40,201 nucleotides of DNA from a virus (IMGVR_UViG_2744054909_000002:1-40201); one strand, 5' to 3'; counted from the stretch's first letter, positions 1 to 12,742 are shown. The notes: a model not told the origin generated them from the letters alone. Numbers and translations are program-made.

Positions 1-549
1 TCAGCTAGCTGGAAACTTTTTATACAGAGTTGAGAGCCCTACTCCATACGTTTTTGATACGCTTTGTCGTGATTCACCGGTTGCCATCCGCTCCCCCATT
101 TCCCGCCATTGCTCATTCGTGAACTTAGGCCTGCGACCACCAACTCGCCCTTTTGCCCTGGCTACGGCCAGCCCTGCTAAGGTACGTTCGCTATTAAGAT
201 CAGATTCATATTGTGCTGCGGAAAGGATGTTACGAAAGTTATAGCGGCCGCTGGCTGTTTTGAGATCCACGCCATCGGTAATACTGCGGAAGTTGATACC
301 CTTTTCCTGTAACTGCTGGAACATCAACAGCGCATGCAGAACGTTGCGGCCTATCCTGTCCAGCTTCCAGACCACCAGTTCATCCCCCGGCTGCATAGTG
401 GCGATCAGCCGTTTTAGAACCGGCCGATTCGATTTCCTCCCGCTGGCATGCTCTTCAAAAATTTTCTCACAACCCGCTGACTTGAGCGCCGTTAGTTGCA
501 ATTCAGTATCCTGGTGGTTTGTTGATACTCGGGCATAACCGTAAATCAT
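1..549 (-). CDS. Site-specific DNA invertase, serine recombinase of the Gin/Hin/Pin/Cin family
   Basis: Protein starts MIYGYARVSTNHQDTELQ with catalytic Ser motif, close match over its length to Mu Gin as recalled, C-terminal HTH; track ORF 1..789 is an upstream extension, true ATG at 549..547. Confidence 0.93.
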   Translation of the reverse strand: MIYGYARVSTNHQDTELQLTALKSAGCEKIFEEHASGRKSNRPVLKRLIATMQPGDELVVWKLDRIGRNVLHALLMFQQLQEKGINFRSITDGVDLKTASGRYNFRNILSAAQYESDLNSERTLAGLAVARAKGRVGGRRPKFTNEQWREMGERMATGESRQSVSKTYGVGLSTLYKKFPAS

Positions 550-608
550 GGGATTTCTCCTGTTATGAAAACAGGAGAAACGGCGAAGCATCACCAGATT
601 TTTGATGG

Positions 609-1971: not shown

Positions 1972-2822
1972 TATTTAGCCCTCACCAGAAAGTTAAATGC
2001 AATATTTCGCGGTCTGACAGCAACAAAATTCACACCATCACCCACAGAGTTACTGGTGAAATTAAATCGTGAAAATCCTGGCTGATTTCCGGCGATGCCA
2101 TCATGAAAGTTAATTGCGTGTCCCGCACCTCCGCCTATATTCCCGGCAAACTGAGAAAAGTTTGTAGCTTCCTGCCAGCTTAATAATTCGCGACCACCAT
2201 CGGCACCTCGCCCGTCATCCCAGATACGAATGAAATCACCGCGGGCTTCAGGTAATACCAGTGAAGGAAACACTTTCGCCAGCACAGGGTAATCAGAGGC
2301 AGAAAATTTCGCCCCGTTGAACTTCAAAAACACCATACTGGACCAGCTGTCGATTACAGTATTTGGCATTGCAGCGGACGGCCAGAAGAACGGAACGCCA
2401 ATAGCTGGAGCACCTTCTCCCAAACCAAGGTTTGCGAGACCGTTTTTTGACGTTAATACAGGAGTCCATTTTGCTGATGGCGGCTGGCTACCAATATTTG
2501 CATTTTGTAAGGACTGATAAGATTCACCGTTATGTGTGCAGATCGAACCGATATGATATTCCTGTTCTGCATGCCACTCTGGAACCCCCATTTGGTGCTG
2601 ATACGCAATGAACTGACTCATTGCATACATTGCCGCATTGAAGTCCTCAAGCGAGGGGTGTTCGGAAGCGCCAACAATGCCCCATCCGCGAAGGAAAGAT
2701 GCCGTAATTTGCGAGGTCAGGTCATCCGCCTGATTTGTTCCACCAAACACGGTTCTTTCCATTCCCTGTGCATCAGAGGCAAAAGCCCGAACATCTCCCT
2801 GATATCGTACAATCTTAGACAT
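1971..2822 (-). CDS. Tail fibre protein: constant N-terminal part (2822..2441) plus currently expressed invertible C-terminal part
   Basis: Position after baseplate genes and before Tfa; crossover site falls in frame at ..NGLANLGLGEGAPA.. Confidence 0.78.
   Translation of the reverse strand: MSKIVRYQGDVRAFASDAQGMERTVFGGTNQADDLTSQITASFLRGWGIVGASEHPSLEDFNAAMYAMSQFIAYQHQMGVPEWHAEQEYHIGSICTHNGESYQSLQNANIGSQPPSAKWTPVLTSKNGLANLGLGEGAPAIGVPFFWPSAAMPNTVIDSWSSMVFLKFNGAKFSASDYPVLAKVFPSLVLPEARGDFIRIWDDGRGADGGRELLSWQEATNFSQFAGNIGGGAGHAINFHDGIAGNQPGFSRFNFTSNSVGDGVNFVAVRPRNIAFNFLVRAK
2415..2440. other. Right inversion crossover site (hix/gix-like, 26 bp): ttctcccaaacc-aa-ggtttgcgagac
   Basis: Near-perfect dyad AAACC-AA-GGTTT core as in hix/gix sites; inverted relative to site at 609-634. 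Confidence 0.65.
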
Positions 2823-3537
2823 GGATTTTCCTCGAAAAAAAACCGCCCTGGTAGGCGGTATTAAACTTGCTGGCGAATCCTCTGGCCGAAGGGTTTCGCG
2901 AGAAACCGAATGTCAGACCAGGAGTCACCTGATAAAAATAATCGTATCGAACGCCCGCAGGTTTCGGCAGCAGGCCAAGCTTCACAATCAGGCGTAACTC
3001 TTCAACTGATACCCGCGGCGAAACGTTCAAAGCAAGCGTCATGTCTTTTCTGTCGGTCACGTAAGCTTCGCCGTTGAAAGCCGTCTGTATAACATCCTGC
3101 AGGCTGACCCGATCGTCTGACGCTATCGTTGCACCTGCGGCGTTTCGCGCAATTTTGACCCGAAGGAACCTGCGATACTCATTGTCAGCCAGTTGATAGT
3201 CACCATATGCCGGCGAAAACTTGCTGTAGAAAGGTGCGCCGACATACGCCGCATTAGATTTACTGTCGAAGCCTGCGGTATTCAGATGTCCGTCAAACCC
3301 GAAAAATACACGGGCAATAACAGCAGGCACACTACGGTGAAGGCCGACTATCCGGCCAATGACATCAAGCCGGTATCCGGTAACCCGGTCGAGATCAAAG
3401 TTATCTGGGTTACGAATAAAATCGGCGATGATTTGCCAGTGCCTGAGCATGGCCTGTATCTCTGATCTTGCTTTTTTCTTTTCCCAATATTGTTTGATGA
3501 GCATTAGCGTGTAGCGGTTAATGATGTCGTCATTCAC
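2815..3537 (-). CDS. Tail/baseplate protein (P2 gpI / Mu gp48-like position)
   Basis: Gene order between J-like baseplate gene and tail fibre; overlapping stop/start with neighbours. Confidence 0.5.
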   Translation of the reverse strand: MNDDIINRYTLMLIKQYWEKKKARSEIQAMLRHWQIIADFIRNPDNFDLDRVTGYRLDVIGRIVGLHRSVPAVIARVFFGFDGHLNTAGFDSKSNAAYVGAPFYSKFSPAYGDYQLADNEYRRFLRVKIARNAAGATIASDDRVSLQDVIQTAFNGEAYVTDRKDMTLALNVSPRVSVEELRLIVKLGLLPKPAGVRYDYFYQVTPGLTFGFSRNPSARGFASKFNTAYQGGFFSRKIHV

Positions 3538-4715
3538 TGGACCACCTCGTTAACGTCTATATTTTCCACACTCAACGTGAACTTTCCCTGAAAGCCTGGC
3601 GATAACTCAGCATCGGTGTAATCTGCCCCATTACTGCTAATTTGCAGATTGGTCAGCACAAAATTTACCCGTCCTACCCCATACCCATTCTCATAAAATT
3701 CATTGGCATCCACAGACTCACCAATATGCATGGTGCGTGATGCAAGAGATTTTTTGAGAGTATCGATATCTATCGGTTCGCTTTGAATCTTCCGGCGGGC
3801 ATTAAGCCTGATATGAAGCGGCTTATAGATGGGCCGATCAAACTGAAGTTCATGGGCTATCAGAAATGAAGTGCCGTCAGGCCGAATCAGGGTCTCGGTA
3901 AAACGTCCGGTTATGCTGCCTTTCGTTCCCGTTCCACCGCCTTTCTGTTTAACCATCACCTCCACAATTTCTGAAATCGCTCCCCCCTCAACGACCAGCC
4001 ATATTGAATTGGCCGGGATACCCGTCGTCGGATTATCAATTTTTGTGTCGTTCTCTCCGATATTCAGATCAATTACACCTGTCAGTTGAGCAACTTTAGC
4101 GAAAACCGCCCCAGTGCTACCTGTTGCCGGGTTCTCAAGCGACCGGTTCCGGCGTTGCCTGAATTCTTCAGGCGTTTCCTCATCCCGACCGACCACAACC
4201 GCGGAATCAGAGATAATGCTCACAATCCCTGGTTCTGGTGTGAGTTGAGTGAAGGTGTCATTCACAAGCCCAGTAACTTTCCCAAAGTTTTGAGCAAAAA
4301 AGGTGGCTGTTGTGACGCCCGCCGGAACGGTCACGTCCTGTCGGATAGCCCAGACCTGATTTGCCTGGTCCCGTATCTTGTACCCGCTATAGAGAAGCAC
4401 CGGCCTGTCTGTTGTGACTTTAAGGTCACGCTGAGACCGGGAGCCGGGGCGAAGGAAAAGCCCGTGAAGTTTGGCGATAATCTGCTGCATATCACCAGTA
4501 TTAAAATCGGGGTCCATTTGGGAATAAAGCCATTGCAGCGCGGCTTCAATATCTGCCCGAGCCTGAGCTTCGATTGCCACGCGTTGACCGTCGGGAGATT
4601 CCTGGTCTAAATCGATATCCTGACCATAAATTCCCTTATATCCGTCGCTCAGTTCCTGAAATAACTCCCGGAGAGTGCTTGTCTCAAGGCCGTTGTCGCT
4701 AAACTGTAGTGCCAT
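3534..4715 (-). CDS. Baseplate J-like protein
   Basis: 393 aa, position and size as P2 gpJ / Mu gp47; translationally coupled to flanking baseplate genes. Confidence 0.55.
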   Translation of the reverse strand: MALQFSDNGLETSTLRELFQELSDGYKGIYGQDIDLDQESPDGQRVAIEAQARADIEAALQWLYSQMDPDFNTGDMQQIIAKLHGLFLRPGSRSQRDLKVTTDRPVLLYSGYKIRDQANQVWAIRQDVTVPAGVTTATFFAQNFGKVTGLVNDTFTQLTPEPGIVSIISDSAVVVGRDEETPEEFRQRRNRSLENPATGSTGAVFAKVAQLTGVIDLNIGENDTKIDNPTTGIPANSIWLVVEGGAISEIVEVMVKQKGGGTGTKGSITGRFTETLIRPDGTSFLIAHELQFDRPIYKPLHIRLNARRKIQSEPIDIDTLKKSLASRTMHIGESVDANEFYENGYGVGRVNFVLTNLQISSNGADYTDAELSPGFQGKFTLSVENIDVNEVVQ

Positions 4716-5079
4716 TCTTCAACGCTCCGTTGACCGGGAAGGTGATCGTCTGCTGGTCATAGACGGTCTCAATGCTGAGTTCGATTTTTTGTGACCGGGT
4801 GGCCTTATTGACCTCCATCGCCAGAGCGGTAATGCGCATAACCCCATCCGTCGCCAGCGTCACGCGCTCTATCTCCCGCAGAATCTCCTGCTCGGTGTTT
4901 TTCTCTGATAACAGGTAAAGCCAGTCGATGTTGTCATCCATGTGGAGAGGATTATCGTTTTTGAACGAGCGGATCCGGCATTTGGCTTTCTGCGCGATAG
5001 CAGCACCGCCAGTTATATAGTTTGCCTTCCCGCGCCCAAATCCCCAGTCGTCATTTTTATCAAGTGCTGAAACAATCAT
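4699..5079 (-). CDS. Baseplate wedge protein (gpW-like)
   Basis: 126 aa between V-like and J-like genes; size and order only. Confidence 0.45.
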   Translation of the reverse strand: MIVSALDKNDDWGFGRGKANYITGGAAIAQKAKCRIRSFKNDNPLHMDDNIDWLYLLSEKNTEQEILREIERVTLATDGVMRITALAMEVNKATRSQKIELSIETVYDQQTITFPVNGALKNGTTV

Positions 5080-5693
5080 GAGATCTCCGTGACAATACCG
5101 TTGGTAACTGTGATTGTTTTCCCGTCATCGCTTCGAAATGAACCAGACACCCCAGACTTACCGCCTGTCTTTACCTGGGAATATTGAAGTACATTCAGAA
5201 CATCGCATTCTTCCAGAGTCGTCTTACCATCTTTCTGGGTAATATTTCCTGTGAGGTTTAAATCACCCTCGTGGTCAGAATCCCCCTTCATCATCCTGTT
5301 CTTCTTAGGGATATTGATCGCGGTAGCCTGTGGGTTAACCCCACACAGAGCGAAGCCATCTGAATAATCGTGCATACGCATTTCAAGTGGTGAAACAAAG
5401 TCGCTACCCGCATACCAAGCGTCATAACAACGCTCAGAGATAAGGACGAGGCAATAGTCACCAGCCGCAATTGGTTCGGCGATATAACTATCACCGCCTT
5501 GCAAAATTACCGGGGGGACTTCAATGAACTCTGGGAGTTGCTTGCTGCTCCCTTTCACAACCCGATTGATAACGGGGACGCAACTGATTGTTTTGTCATT
5601 TACAGACGTTATTTTTGCGACAACAATGGTGTGAACATCGGCCAGAGCAAATTCAACACCCAGGCCGATAGTGTCGTGAAGTTCTTCGATCAT
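5076..5693 (-). CDS. Baseplate spike/assembly protein (gpV-like)
   Basis: 205 aa, position upstream of W/J-like genes; size and order only. Confidence 0.45.
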   Translation of the reverse strand: MIEELHDTIGLGVEFALADVHTIVVAKITSVNDKTISCVPVINRVVKGSSKQLPEFIEVPPVILQGGDSYIAEPIAAGDYCLVLISERCYDAWYAGSDFVSPLEMRMHDYSDGFALCGVNPQATAINIPKKNRMMKGDSDHEGDLNLTGNITQKDGKTTLEECDVLNVLQYSQVKTGGKSGVSGSFRSDDGKTITVTNGIVTEIS

Positions 5694-5808
5694 AAATTAA
5701 GCCCATAAAAAACCGCCAGAGTGGGTTCAATGGATGGCTAGATAAATACTCATACTAATCGCCGTAGAGCGAACCTGCGCCAGCGTTTAATACTAAGGAG
5801 AGTCACTC

Positions 5809-6342
5809 ATGGGATTCAAATTCAGACAGCGCATCAAAATTGCACCAGGCATTCATATAAACATAGGTAAAACAGGCATTACTAGCGCATCAATTGGTAA
5901 GGCTGGTGCTACCCTGAACGTTGGTAAAAAAGGGGTAAAGGCAACCGCAGGCATTCCCGGTACCGGTTTGTCTTACACGAGTGGAAACTTGCTCGCGGGT
6001 CAAAAGAACTCCACCGGTAAACACGCTGAGAACGTAGAGGAACAAGCACCTGAGCGGCTTGGTTTCTTTTCGGACTCAACGTTGTTAGAGGATGGTCAGG
6101 AAGATATTCAACCACCTCGCCCATTGGTCATGGTATTAACCCATAAGCAATTTAGAAAACTATCAACCGAGGAGAAAACGGCATTTAAAAATGCAGGTGG
6201 TAAGGTGAAGTTTTCAATAGGCGAGAAAATTTTTATTCTCACAGTCATTATTTTTGCTCTTGGCTGGCTTTCAGATCGTCACCCACCAGAAAAAACCAAT
6301 TCCAGCGTAACGCAAGAAGTAAAATCTTCAGTTAACAACTGA
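5809..6342 (+). CDS. DUF4236-like protein with C-terminal transmembrane anchor; accessory gene on opposite strand inside baseplate cluster
   Basis: N-terminus MGFKFRQRIKIAPGIHINIGKTGI..GIPGTGLSYTSG resembles DUF4236 as recalled; AAGGAG SD 8 nt before ATG; hydrophobic segment IFILTVIIFALGWL near C-terminus. Confidence 0.6.
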   Translation: MGFKFRQRIKIAPGIHINIGKTGITSASIGKAGATLNVGKKGVKATAGIPGTGLSYTSGNLLAGQKNSTGKHAENVEEQAPERLGFFSDSTLLEDGQEDIQPPRPLVMVLTHKQFRKLSTEEKTAFKNAGGKVKFSIGEKIFILTVIIFALGWLSDRHPPEKTNSSVTQEVKSSVNN

Positions 6343-7275
6343 GTAATTTCCGGCAGGCTGGCATACCACCTTCTGATACCAGGCTGCCCCGTTGTTCTGC
6401 CCGCTGGTTTCAATCTGGTATATCTTATAAACCCCGTTTAACGCGGGGTTCGTCACGCTTTCAACAGCGCAAAGCCCACCGATCACCAGCATAGGATTCA
6501 GTTTCGTATCGAATACGATCTGCCCTTTCGAGGATTTGGCTAAGGTACTCGAGTCAGTATCTTTTTTGCCTGCCGGATCCGTATCAGGCTCATTGGTCGG
6601 CTTTTTGGCCTTTTTCCCGCCGTCATCCTGCGCGCTAATCTTCGTAGCCTGAGGCGTATTTAGCAGGCCGCTACGCGCATTCACGACTGGAATGTTACCC
6701 GATGTAACCTCATTAGCCTTGAGGATGTGGACGCGCTCATCTTTGATGAAAAATGACTCGTCGGGCGCAAGGGTATCGGTAAGAATTTTACTGGAGCTAC
6801 CTACCAGAACCTTCGGCCTGATGAGTGCTTGTTGCTTCGTCACAGAGCCTTTTTTCGTGTTTGGCATATCCTGCAAGACAGAATCGACGACCTGATCTTT
6901 CCCGCGTACCGTGCGCGATGTGAAGGCGTTGATATAGTCGTGGCCACCGTCTTCACATTCCAGGCTGACGATGTGGATCGCCCCCTCACGCTTTACTGCT
7001 CCGCTTTTAACCGAACCCTGAAATACCTGGCGCAGCTTGCCGTCGTAACCAACCTCGAGTCGAACGGGGATATACTTCTCTTCATCTTCGGACTTGAGCA
7101 ATTGCAGACGCGTGGAAGGCTTTAGCCCGTTGATGGACACACTCAGCTTGCCGAGTGACTTCTTGTCCACAGTTTCCAGCGCCTTGAATGACACGGTGAT
7201 CGGTGGCTCGATAATCACTGCTTGATTGCCGATCCCCACCGTCAGCCGATAATCACGGTAAAAAGTATCCATCAC
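6328..7275 (-). CDS. Tail/baseplate hub protein (Mu gp44 / gpD-like position)
   Basis: 315 aa, order after tape measure and small tail genes; size and order only. Confidence 0.45.
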   Translation of the reverse strand: MMDTFYRDYRLTVGIGNQAVIIEPPITVSFKALETVDKKSLGKLSVSINGLKPSTRLQLLKSEDEEKYIPVRLEVGYDGKLRQVFQGSVKSGAVKREGAIHIVSLECEDGGHDYINAFTSRTVRGKDQVVDSVLQDMPNTKKGSVTKQQALIRPKVLVGSSSKILTDTLAPDESFFIKDERVHILKANEVTSGNIPVVNARSGLLNTPQATKISAQDDGGKKAKKPTNEPDTDPAGKKDTDSSTLAKSSKGQIVFDTKLNPMLVIGGLCAVESVTNPALNGVYKIYQIETSGQNNGAAWYQKVVCQPAGNYSVVN

Positions 7276-7607
7276 GGCACGTCTCCCCCGCGAATATCAA
7301 TCATCTCTTCCGGCGTGACCAGATACATTTCGATGCGACCACTGGCGAAGTCGTCAGCCCGATATGGGTCAATGCCGGAATTGTCAGCGCAAAGTAACAC
7401 AACGTCGAAAGGCCAGTTCTTGTGCCGAAAATGTAGCGTCCCGAGGGACAGCTTCACGCCGTCGATGTAATCACCGTTGTACTCCACGCGCATTTTCCAC
7501 ATTTCAACCGTAGGCAGATAACGAATAGTGACCACAGCCTCACCACGGTCAAAAATCAGAACATGCCGCTGGATAGGTTCGTCAGTGATGTTGGTTATCG
7601 GATCCAT
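7272..7607 (-). CDS. Tail protein, function unknown
   Basis: 111 aa ORF translationally coupled within tail operon. Confidence 0.4.
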   Translation of the reverse strand: MDPITNITDEPIQRHVLIFDRGEAVVTIRYLPTVEMWKMRVEYNGDYIDGVKLSLGTLHFRHKNWPFDVVLLCADNSGIDPYRADDFASGRIEMYLVTPEEMIDIRGGDVP

Positions 7608-7619
7608 ACGTTGCTCTCA

Positions 7620-8426
7620 TTAGAATAAAGATTTCGCCGCCCCTTTTAACGAGGTCATGACTGATTTTGACTGGCTGGTCCCGTTACTTTTTTTAGAATT
7701 ATCAGCGGGCGTCTGCGCCCCCTTATTAGCAACGCCCGCCGTTTTTGATTTAGCAGCTGCCGAGGGGGATTTGAAGTGCTGCTCAATCGGTGCGGTAGTC
7801 AGTTGCGTGAAGGTGATTTTTGTAAAACTGGCTTCAAACTTAGTTTCCATCGTTTGATTGTCGGTACTGATGGTCAGGCCGCTTAACGCCATATTTTCAT
7901 GGGTGCGATAATCCACCTCCACGGAAATAAGCTGCTTGCCGTAGTACACCCCCTCAATGAAGTCGAGAAATTGCTCGCGTATACCTTTAGCGCCACCAGT
8001 AGACAGGTTGCCCACCAGCCCAAACAGGTCGGCTCCTTTATCAGCCAGGCGTTTTGCCTTTAAGATGGCCTGCTCTGCGCGGTCGGCAATCTCATTCATT
8101 TTTTGCAACTGCTGCTGCGTCTTTGCGGGGATGTACTCCAGCACCTCACCATACTTCGAATAATCTGGCATCAGGCTAAAAGAAGAGTTTGGTTTCGCAT
8201 CGACAAAAATATCGGCAACAACACCGCTGATTTTTATCGTCAGCGGGCCATTGATAATATCGTCAGACGCGTTACTACCGTCCTCCAGCACGTCTACCGG
8301 AACTTGAGATGGGTATTCAGTAGCGTCGCTAACTCGCGCAAACATTGAGAACCCGCCGATCCCTACCTTTTTAACAGTATCTTTGCCCGAGGATTGCGCC
8401 TGCATGAGGCCGTCTAGAATCCCCAT
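7620..8426 (-). CDS. Tail protein (possibly DNA-circulation-like)
   Basis: 268 aa immediately downstream of tape measure gene; order only. Confidence 0.4.
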   Translation of the reverse strand: MGILDGLMQAQSSGKDTVKKVGIGGFSMFARVSDATEYPSQVPVDVLEDGSNASDDIINGPLTIKISGVVADIFVDAKPNSSFSLMPDYSKYGEVLEYIPAKTQQQLQKMNEIADRAEQAILKAKRLADKGADLFGLVGNLSTGGAKGIREQFLDFIEGVYYGKQLISVEVDYRTHENMALSGLTISTDNQTMETKFEASFTKITFTQLTTAPIEQHFKSPSAAAKSKTAGVANKGAQTPADNSKKSNGTSQSKSVMTSLKGAAKSLF

Positions 8427-11239: not shown

Positions 11240-12742
11240 TTATTTATTGAAATTGATGATGATATCGGCACTGTGAACAGCACCAGCATTCTTCACTGCT
11301 ACCTGAACAACCGGGGATTTGCGTTCCTGCCTGTCTGCGGTTGACTGGTCTTTCAGGTCACCGGCCAGCACGTAATACCCGTTTTGCTCGATATTTCGCA
11401 GAAACATATCCCGATCCCCGAAGAAGTCAGGCAGCGTCCAGGTACCCGGATTGAACACCCCAGCCTTCACAAACCCATGCGTGGTTTTCTCTACACAGTC
11501 CTCTAACTGATCAACGCCATAATAGGTTTGTGGGACTTTAGTCGGCGTGGTTTTAAGGAGGTTGAAGGAATCCGTCTGCACTGCGTCAACGTAGGCCATC
11601 AGGTTATAGACGTTGTCGACAAAATCATTAGCACCGCTTGACAGCACGCAGGGAACGTCTTTAATCGTGGTGTAGATGTCGAGACCTACGCGCTTCGCTT
11701 TGTCGATCTCCGTCTGCTCATAACTTTCGGCCGGCACGTTCATCGTTTTGAGGTGCAAAGTGATTGCAGTGCGTTCTCCGTTGAAATTAACGGTATGCGT
11801 GCGCGCCATATAGCTAACACTAAATTTCCGGTTGCCTGATTTGCTGTAGAGCATGCGGAAATTACTCTGGCTGGCGAGTGTTACCGCCCATGCCGGGTTA
11901 GTCGGATCAACTTCCAGAGCTGCCGAACCGGTAAATGTCTCATACACGATTACCGCGTTCGCTTTAGCCCATGAAGCGATCAACGGCACCTGCGCATCGA
12001 GAATTTTGTCGATGAAGGCCGCGCCTTTTACGTTGACCTGCGCTTTGAGTTTGCTGAGAGATTCCAGTTGTGTTTCCGGTGAAATCTCAGTTGATGCGCT
12101 ACCGTTTACCAGCGAAGCGCCGGAACCCTCCGCAACCGCCAGCAGATCGCCAATAAAAGAGCCACCATCCAGCACTGTCGGATAACCAACAACAGAGTTA
12201 GTCCCTGTCGATTTGCTGGTAATCGCTATACGGCTGCCATCAAAAACAACCGATGCAACATCTGGCGTAATTTTCGCCTGGATTTGGGCGATTACATCTG
12301 CCAGTGTCGTCGCCGTCATGCCATTAATTTCGGTCACATCGTGCTTCGTACCGTCAATCTCAATACTGAATGACCAGTCAGACTTCTCGCGTAACGCTGG
12401 CAGTACGACTGCCTGAGAAATCTCACCGCCACGCAGTACACCGCTGGTCGCAGGCAGCGTTTCCCCGGCAGCGTTCCAGTAACCGACGATCAGCGTGCCG
12501 CCCGCGGATACCGGGTTAGGGCTGGTCCCGAAAAACACATTCGCAAATGCTGCGGTGACCGAAGAAGCCCCCCAGTCCTGTTCGACAGCAGATGCGCTTT
12601 TGTATGAACGCCAGCGTTCAGCGGTGCTCAATACCCCCGTCTGGCTGGTAAGCATTGCGCAAACGTTGATGTTATCTCGCGCCGCCGCCCGTCCCTCTTC
12701 GAGAAGCGTCACATTAATGACGTTATTAATTGATGCCGACAT
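11240..12742 (-). CDS. Contractile tail sheath protein
   Basis: 500 aa, size and position as Mu L / P2 FI sheath proteins. Confidence 0.72.
   Translation of the reverse strand: MSASINNVINVTLLEEGRAAARDNINVCAMLTSQTGVLSTAERWRSYKSASAVEQDWGASSVTAAFANVFFGTSPNPVSAGGTLIVGYWNAAGETLPATSGVLRGGEISQAVVLPALREKSDWSFSIEIDGTKHDVTEINGMTATTLADVIAQIQAKITPDVASVVFDGSRIAITSKSTGTNSVVGYPTVLDGGSFIGDLLAVAEGSGASLVNGSASTEISPETQLESLSKLKAQVNVKGAAFIDKILDAQVPLIASWAKANAVIVYETFTGSAALEVDPTNPAWAVTLASQSNFRMLYSKSGNRKFSVSYMARTHTVNFNGERTAITLHLKTMNVPAESYEQTEIDKAKRVGLDIYTTIKDVPCVLSSGANDFVDNVYNLMAYVDAVQTDSFNLLKTTPTKVPQTYYGVDQLEDCVEKTTHGFVKAGVFNPGTWTLPDFFGDRDMFLRNIEQNGYYVLAGDLKDQSTADRQERKSPVVQVAVKNAGAVHSADIIINFNK

Follow-up and report, generated by a model that had tools for sequence, protein, structure and literature searches.

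What is a lone gene doing on the opposite strand within the baseplate operon of a prophage, and what might its product do for the bacterium that carries it? The question is raised by a stretch of viral DNA of 40,201 nucleotides (nt) (IMGVR_UViG_2744054909_000002:1-40201; "the window" hereafter means this whole stretch), an E. coli prophage of ~40 kb that joins a lambdoid regulatory and replication region to a contractile-tail morphogenesis module. Between its minus-strand genes for the central spike and the baseplate hub lies a plus-strand gene for a protein with an N-terminal DUF4236 domain and a C-terminal hydrophobic anchor, and comparison with related tail modules indicates that this gene is very probably accessory cargo (a moron) in an exchangeable slot and not a structural gene. 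The features of the slot and its flanks are:

5076..5693, minus strand: central spike gene, left flank of the slot (PF18352, E 1.3e-17; RefSeq: membrane-puncturing spike protein)
5694..5808, plus strand: intergenic leader from the spike start to the cargo ATG, 115 nt, non-coding, GC 44%
5795..5800, plus strand: Shine-Dalgarno sequence AAGGAG, from sequence reading, 8 nt before the cargo ATG
5809..6342, plus strand: putative cargo (moron) gene with an ATG start, encoding a 177-residue DUF4236-domain protein predicted to be a bitopic membrane protein (RefSeq WP_000505900.1)
6328..6342, either strand: convergent overlap of the 3' ends of the cargo and hub genes, 15 nt
6328..7275, minus strand: baseplate hub gene, right flank of the slot (PF22759, E 2.9e-9; phrog_196 'baseplate hub', E 5e-51)

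An earlier, sequence-only reading of this locus had described a plus-strand open reading frame (ORF) of 177 residues amid minus-strand tail genes, with its own AAGGAG Shine-Dalgarno sequence and a 15-nt 3' overlap with a convergent tail gene. All of this holds at the coordinates given above, the convergent gene being that of the hub, and the stop and start codons of the minus-strand baseplate neighbours overlap. Of the span then assigned to the gene, 5694-6342, the part 5809-6342 is coding, while 5694-5808 is the leader, 5694 being the first base beyond the spike gene. The ratio of nonsynonymous to synonymous substitution rates (dN/dS) of the cargo gene is ~0.2 relative to homologues 92-94% identical, with values of 0-0.16 in the DUF4236 domain, 0.05-0.26 in the juxtamembrane motif and transmembrane (TM) helix, and 0.3-0.5 in the linker and tail (0.3-0.4 in the linker). 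Full-length homologues of 53-92% identity occur in Escherichia, Salmonella, Kluyvera, Pantoea and Yersinia. These comparisons show a real gene under purifying selection. With a GC content of 43.6% (39% at third codon positions, GC3) the gene stands apart from its neighbours (GC3 47-64%) and from the window as a whole (50.8%); low GC is typical of horizontally acquired cargo and supports that reading. The gene is rare, occurring in 5 of 5,426 complete E. coli genomes.

Whether the gene belongs to the baseplate or is a guest there was addressed by synteny. With the hub protein as query, 71 IMG/VR loci and 2 genome loci were retrieved, their hubs being 74-100% identical, and overall ~80 related tail modules were compared, with hub, spike and intervening content located in each. 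The spacing between hub and spike falls into classes of 32-35, 386-390, 467-495, 566-589, 637, 803-881, 936-969, 1094-1099 and 2117-2463 nt, with the following content (L numbers denote individual loci):

32-35 nt: slot empty, in L074 only (32-nt spacer)
386-390 nt: 'c1', encoding a signal-peptide protein of 120 residues on the strand antisense to the late operon; ~25 loci
467-495 nt: short variants of the cargo family of the window
566-589 nt: bPH_2 membrane protein on the late strand (PF03703, phrog_3707 'moron')
637 nt: the DUF4236 gene of the window; ~14 loci
803-881 nt: DUF7424 lipoprotein
821 nt: 251-residue version of the DUF4236 protein, with an extra two-cysteine domain of ~90 residues after the TM helix
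936-966 nt: secreted PF12869 protein with a match to phrog_8545 'superinfection exclusion Sie-like'
952-1099 nt: the DUF4236 gene together with c1, as an antisense pair
2117-2463 nt: antirepressor and Arc genes on the late strand, then a Mnt-like ribbon-helix-helix gene and the DUF4236 gene antisense; Salmonella L003/L004 and Yersinia L005-L007

The cargo differs even where spike and hub are 92-99% identical to those of the window (for example in L025, L039-41, L042 and L022), and near-identical flanks around different cargo show that the cassettes are exchanged by recombination. L074, fEV-1, PP270 and over 35 close relatives lack the DUF4236 cargo, and other cargo is found in more than 35 loci with flanks 80-99% identical. 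Among cultured phages the nearest are Yersinia fEV-1, with a hub 46% identical, and Vibrio PP270 of the XM1 group, with one 44% identical, and in both the hub and spike genes overlap without any insert. The hub|spike junction is a hypervariable cargo slot whose alternative occupants are at least four unrelated envelope proteins, and the status of the DUF4236 gene as cargo follows, with high probability, from its variable presence at this site. The sequence-only reading had also taken the antisense insert for cargo, which the synteny comparison bears out: instead of being conserved at this position in all relatives, the gene is replaced by an empty slot, by overlapping flanks or by other cargo. 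For a virion structural or baseplate component, the location within the baseplate gene cluster can be adduced and nothing else, and it is outweighed by the absences just listed, by the opposite strand and by the membrane-anchored architecture of the product; a chance ORF is at odds with a full-length Pfam domain, a dN/dS of ~0.2 and homologues across Enterobacterales. Both are very improbable and can be regarded as effectively excluded.

The E. coli sequences H6-H8, considered as relatives lacking the insert, are prophage remnants truncated by the insertion sequence IS1 and were not used as synteny evidence. In three E. coli genomes (NZ_CP059288, corresponding to L002 6695-7650, NZ_CM149866 and NZ_LR898868) the match stops at the end of the spike gene; NZ_CP059288 carries IS1A shortly past an ORF of 267 nt and has lost its hub-to-head region, which leaves a prophage remnant.

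The survey also yielded observations on the other occupants of the slot. The commonest, c1, is found in L025 (6949-7311), L039, L053, L064 and others and has a conserved C-terminus ending in DYVATICLDMK; no Pfam or PHROG match was found for it, and in L028-L037, L010 and L060 it forms a pair with the DUF4236 gene. Cargo on the late strand comprises c15 (bPH_2; L022, L026, L049, L058, L061, L063 and L076), c26 (DUF7424; L042-44, L056 and L067) and c77 (PF12869; L046 and L082), and in at least one locus of each of these types (L022, L042, L046) a hairpin followed by a T-run lies just 5' of the spike start, that of L022 reading AAAAAAACCTGCGATTAGGCAGGTTT. Elsewhere in the tail module, the Yersinia relatives L005-L007 carry at 11295-12095 an antisense gene with a NUMOD3 domain (homing-endonuclease-like), which lies between the tail sheath gene, which it abuts, and a downstream gene for a 143-residue protein.

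What kind of protein the cargo gene encodes can be read from its domains, which in the window are arranged as follows:

5815..5979, plus strand: DUF4236 domain, residues 3-57, from Pfam; predicted six-stranded antiparallel beta-meander
5983..6129, plus strand: acidic variable linker, residues 59-107; predicted local distance difference test (pLDDT) score <50, disordered in the model at 66-107
6130..6216, plus strand: conserved juxtamembrane motif LT.KQFRKLS..EKK.FK.AGGKVKFS, residues 108-136, from the homologue alignment
6217..6279, plus strand: predicted TM helix, residues 137-157, with a conserved GWL at its distal end, from AlphaFold2 and hydropathy
6280..6339, plus strand: Ser/Thr-rich tail, residues 158-177, probably periplasmic; disordered in the model

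The resemblance of the N-terminus to DUF4236, suspected from the start, was verified by a hidden Markov model (HMM) search in which PF14020 matches at 69 bits against a gathering cutoff of 27 (E 4.9e-19), profile positions 1-55 of 55 aligning with residues 3-57; phrog_18347 matches the protein at E 5.6e-79. In an AlphaFold2 model built on an alignment of 82 sequences, the beta-meander spans residues 7-58 with a pLDDT of ~90 (strands 7-12, 15-20, 23-31, 34-39, 42-49 and 54-58), and two short helices are predicted at 112-128. Residues 1-58 have a net charge of +9 and the linker of -5; the linker varies in length and is deleted in variants of 147-149 residues. The suspected C-terminal anchor was likewise recovered, with the Kyte-Doolittle maximum, IFILTVIIFALGWLS, at residues 141-155 inside the modelled helix 137-157. 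This helix is conserved in every full-length homologue of the alignment, and 74 of the 89 DUF4236 homologues have a hydrophobic segment (17-mer) C-terminal to the domain. Lysine and arginine residues number four before the helix versus two after it, a ~90-residue two-cysteine domain replaces the Ser/Thr-rich tail in relatives of 248-252 residues, and in SH3_3 fusions the TM segment lies between DUF4236 and the SH3 domain. From the K/R-rich flank before the helix, the two-cysteine domain after it in the long relatives and the layouts of the homologues and SH3_3 fusions, we infer that the cargo protein is an N-in/C-out bitopic inner-membrane protein, with DUF4236 predicted to be cytoplasmic.

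By these measures the protein is a true member of the DUF4236/PF14020 family, with the domain at the N-terminus followed by a TM segment as is usual in the family, from which it differs in the lineage-restricted motif and TM core of its C-terminus. Only four real cluster representatives of this core were found among 1.8 billion proteins, and it is restricted to a few enterobacterial prophage clusters; a wider family sharing the core, considered as a functional lead, was dropped on that count. Variants without DUF4236 also occupy the slot (L054 6944-7387, L072, and L080 6947-7369), starting at the motif KEFRxLSxxEKKxFKxxGGKV and continuing with a TM segment and a two-cysteine domain of ~90 residues that has weak matches to phrog_13160 and phrog_32961; the cargo-protein family is accordingly modular. 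The DUF4236 family, including PHROG 18347 and eight other PHROGs, is without an assigned function or solved structure. A search of the PDB with the family profile gave nothing below E 0.6, Foldseek against BFVD retrieved only other unannotated DUF4236 proteins, no defence HMM of PADLOC-DB v2.0.0 matched the cargo protein at E <= 1, and in the papers searched DUF4236 was mentioned once, in passing, WP_000505900 nowhere, and no virion proteomics of phiCD38-2 came up.

How a gene opposed to its operon might be transcribed is suggested by one further element:

5599..5627, plus strand: promoter-like element TTTACA-17 nt-AACAAT, 9/12 matches in a consensus scan, overlapping the 5'-terminal part of the spike ORF on the antisense strand and aimed into the slot

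It is exact in 61 of 76 related loci and differs by single changes in the others; L074, a single case of an empty slot, has AACAAC. In the interior of the spike gene, synonymous diversity reaches its minimum at codons 23-32 (5598-5627), a minimum reached by 11 of 5000 permutations, and the codons beneath both hexamers are invariant while the spacer codons vary. In the loci that hold c1 only, the antisense cargo ATG lies 20 nt from the spike ATG, so that a promoter there must lie inside the spike ORF. The evidence that 5599-5627 is a promoter serving the slot is suggestive. As for the leader, its last ~55 nt (about 5752-5808) are conserved and travel with the cargo gene, and a motif, (C/T)ATACTAAT...CGTTTAA.ACTAAGGAGAGT, is common to the window and Salmonella L003, where it lies 3' of mnt; a regulatory RNA structure in the 115-nt leader was considered and rejected (z = 0.04). 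Judged by its orientation and by the linkage to mnt and repressor genes in relatives, the cargo gene is probably expressed in the lysogen from an antisense promoter.

The linkage to mnt brings in phage P22. In Salmonella L003/L004 and Yersinia L005-7 the slot holds ant<-arc<-|->mnt->DUF4236, that is, hub> <DUF4236 <mnt | arc> ant> spike>, and the annotated order in P22 is gene16> <sieA <orf59a <mnt | arc> ant> gene9>. The Mnt and Ant proteins of the slot are 40% and 38% identical to those of P22, and both small proteins of this immI module match the Arc family. The module lies inside the baseplate operon (L003 4361-5931 and L004; 4481-5937 in L005-L007). In position, the DUF4236 gene of these relatives fills the place of P22 sieA/orf59a, a likeness that speaks of location and not of membership in the same family. 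SieA, a protein of the inner membrane, is expressed from the prophage and blocks the injection of DNA (PMC10883804). It shares with the cargo protein that it is a small membrane protein encoded antisense to the late operon and convergently with a genome-delivery gene; it differs in having three predicted TM helices (PMC10883804) and neither DUF4236 nor any other Pfam domain, whereas the cargo protein has one C-terminal TM helix and a large N-terminal part predicted to be cytoplasmic. Measured against the SieA family, whose members have at least three TM helices, the cargo protein has the single helix 137-157, and the cytoplasmic SieA motif FxRYPxEAxxFNK (PMC10883804) is absent from it. P22 is moreover a podovirus, and the prophage considered here is of the myovirus type.

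DUF4236 genes were also located in other phages. In Klebsiella phage RCIP0034 (L087 5001-5318), a myovirus with a distantly related baseplate module, a 105-residue gene of the layout DUF4236-linker-TM lies antisense, directly upstream of the spike, and in Pasteurella phage Pmp2 a DUF4236 gene adjoins the baseplate hub. In an Acinetobacter prophage, Acinetobacter phage Ab11510-phi and C. difficile phiCD38-2 the gene lies just before the tape-measure gene. Orf32 of the Firmicutes phage Shimadzu of Roseburia (L094 3501-4088), a DUF4236+TM2 gene, is found between repressor and integrase, the place in the lysogeny module where Ltp-type exclusion genes sit (PMC3952083), and an Aliivibrio homologue of the layout DUF4236-TM-SH3 is encoded in an island with CcdAB, TacA/acetyltransferase and Abi_alpha genes. 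DUF4236 genes are thus recurrently associated with genome-delivery or immunity genes, without being exclusive to lysogeny. This recurrence bears on a further explanation, lysogenic conversion without phage defence, by which the protein would alter the envelope physiology of the host (stress tolerance, transport or host interaction). The moron status, the own Shine-Dalgarno sequence and the low GC of the gene would suit such a role, as would the benefit to host fitness that many morons bring (PMC3594210), and a family with no assigned function leaves room for it. The recurrence of DUF4236 beside tail-tip, tape-measure, immunity and lysogeny genes in unrelated phages of hosts from different phyla, however, points to a phage-directed role, and the rarity of the gene in E. 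coli also speaks against conversion, which we consider quite unlikely.

Other known systems offer partial parallels. The accessory genes of HK97, gp15 and gp23, likewise lie between tail genes: gp15 immediately precedes the gene for the tape measure, and gp23, within the tail operon, carries the annotation of a moron on the reverse strand. Work of Cumby and colleagues from 2012 reportedly describes gp15 as an inner-membrane exclusion protein expressed from the prophage. It is a protein of 62 residues encoded on the late strand with its own terminator, whereas the cargo protein has 177 residues and a DUF4236 domain and is encoded antisense with no clear terminator. The Ltp and Sie2009-type proteins of Firmicutes phages are similar in being products of lysogeny-associated morons tethered to the membrane, and Ltp, a lysogeny-module moron, binds the tape measure and thereby blocks DNA injection (PMC3952083). 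Unlike Ltp, a lipoprotein exposed at the surface, the cargo protein lacks both signal peptide and lipobox, and most of it is predicted to lie in the cytoplasm.

A different mode of protection is exemplified by PdpSau of S. aureus prophages, a membrane-anchored protein with a positively charged cytoplasmic domain that mediates abortive infection with loss of membrane polarity (PMC10127798). It resembles the cargo protein as a prophage accessory protein combining a membrane anchor with such a domain (PMC10127798) and differs in that its anchor is an N-terminal helix and its gene is linked to lysis genes and not to the baseplate; the comparison is one of described features. By analogy, DUF4236 might sense a phage product or DNA after entry, whereupon the anchored protein would depolarise or permeabilise the membrane and the infected cell would die. 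The predominantly cytoplasmic protein, the net charge of +9 in the domain region, the Aliivibrio homologue in its island of toxin-antitoxin and Abi_alpha genes and the PdpSau precedent itself (PMC10127798) are in keeping with such an effector, but no PADLOC model matches, the positional analogy is to sieA, and the other cargoes of the slot are periplasmic proteins or lipoproteins, better suited to exclusion at the surface. Abortive infection by a membrane-disrupting effector is, on this evidence, unlikely, though less so than lysogenic conversion.

The explanation that we favour is that the gene is a moron in the recombinationally exchangeable hub|spike slot of a temperate enterobacterial prophage with a contractile tail, and that its transcript is antisense to the late operon and starts, most likely, from a weak constitutive promoter in the first ~95 nt of the spike ORF, to which read-through from the mnt promoter may add in the relatives that bear immI. 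The protein would then be made in the lysogen while the late genes are silent. Its basic DUF4236 beta-meander would face the cytoplasm and would be joined by the flexible acidic linker to the juxtamembrane motif and the one TM helix, leaving ~20 residues in the periplasm. In that position its most likely task would be to protect the lysogen, at the level of the envelope, against incoming phage, and exclusion at the inner membrane could come about through interference with the conduit formed by tail tip and tape measure or with the entering DNA, as for P22 SieA and HK97 gp15. Counting in favour of this explanation are the other cargoes of the slot, all of them envelope proteins, the immI link and the recurrence of DUF4236 at moron and sie sites. 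For the reading as a whole, that is, a moron encoding an N-in bitopic inner-membrane protein with envelope-level phage protection, the chances appear about even. Anti-phage protection at the membrane, taken by itself, is, judged from context, marginally more likely than not, and superinfection exclusion of the SieA/gp15 type specifically, although favoured over a PdpSau-like abortive mechanism, is put forward only tentatively.

Several observations weigh against this explanation. The window itself has no immI module, and the mnt linkage is one of homology of position only. Homology to SieA by BLASTP is not significant (best E 0.036 over 23 residues), and HK97 gp15 and the cargo protein give no local alignment at E <= 100. 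The dip in synonymous diversity could equally mark a recombination boundary or an element of the late mRNA, loci with late-strand cargo likewise retain the promoter-like motif, a consensus scan found no canonical sigma-70 match on the plus strand of 5694-5808, and no clear terminator was found for the cargo gene. Most of the cargo protein is predicted to be cytoplasmic, which fits an abortive-infection sensor or effector equally and fits exclusion less than a periplasm-exposed factor would. Finally, DUF4236 occurs in large virulent phages (of Klebsiella and Brevundimonas), and some DUF4236 genes run in the direction of the late genes (phiCD38-2, Acinetobacter), occurrences which imply that the domain is not tied to lysogeny. 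They also lend weight to a function in the lytic cycle, in which the protein, made early or late in infection, would tune when the cell lyses, how the genome is delivered or how the tail tip is assembled at the membrane, or would exclude other phages during lytic growth in the manner of T4 Imm: in phiCD38-2, Acinetobacter prophages and Pasteurella Pmp2 the gene runs with the tail genes, and the gene always adjoins genes of the membrane-piercing apparatus. In the present lineage, however, it is antisense to the late operon and converges on the hub gene, so that strong late transcription would oppose its expression, and it is dispensable, many relatives with flanks 92-99% identical being without it. 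A lytic-cycle accessory is improbable, more so than either abortive infection or lysogenic conversion.

The remaining genes around the cargo gene, among which the tape measure gene is also on the minus strand, are:

2815-3537, minus strand: DUF2612 gene
3534-4715, minus strand: Baseplate_J gene
4699-5079, minus strand: sheath-initiator-like gene
7272-7607, minus strand: plug-like gene
7620-8426, minus strand: Dit-like gene

In NZ_CP191804, from which the window is 11 bases apart when a rearranged tail-fibre segment (~644-2414) is excluded, the prophage is sited with tonB/yciI on one side and kch on the other. Within ~644-2414 the two sequences differ, and part of the stretch aligns inverted at 89%, which suggests that the two sources hold different arrangements or alleles of a host-range switch. 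The window contains here an invertible segment of tail-fibre and tail-fibre-assembly genes (616-2433) with inverted repeats at 616-646 and 2403-2433, adjoined by a serine-recombinase gene (~4-552, minus strand). A second lone plus-strand gene, at 24069-24479, encodes a hypothetical protein of 136 residues between the minus-strand lysis cassette and the antiterminator gene and is a candidate for another antisense moron. The antiterminator gene, a Q-like antitermination gene at 24676-25485 (minus strand), is intact in the window, and its copy in NZ_CP191804 is a RefSeq pseudogene with an internal stop; the two differ by a single-nucleotide polymorphism at 25215, and the pseudogene flag does not apply to the window. 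Since the gene is intact in one and interrupted by a stop in the other, the prophage of the window may be inducible where that of the RefSeq strain is not.

A more far-reaching proposal, which we offer as speculation with little probability of holding in full, is that DUF4236 serves as cytoplasmic signature module in a widespread, uncharacterised class of membrane-anchored phage proteins for exclusion or defence, that phages of Proteobacteria and Firmicutes have inserted the genes of this class time and again beside those for tail tip, tape measure or immunity, that the basic amphipathic beta-meander would intercept the delivery conduit or the DNA at the inner face of the inner membrane, and that the hub|spike slot is a dedicated site for envelope-defence cassettes with its promoter hidden in the spike gene.

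Taken by itself, the gene fits the textbook picture of a moron and changes no concept. Its interest lies in what it offers for a large family, namely a tractable E. coli representative whose context predicts a phage exclusion or defence phenotype. The hub|spike junction emerges from the mapping as a hotspot for cargo, with at least six cargo states, mostly uncharacterised envelope proteins, and so provides a compact source of candidate exclusion factors, and a promoter embedded in a structural gene would explain how cassettes with almost no upstream DNA are expressed. Should it be true that DUF4236 proteins block genome entry from the cytoplasmic side, they would constitute a new family, and possibly a new mode, of superinfection exclusion.

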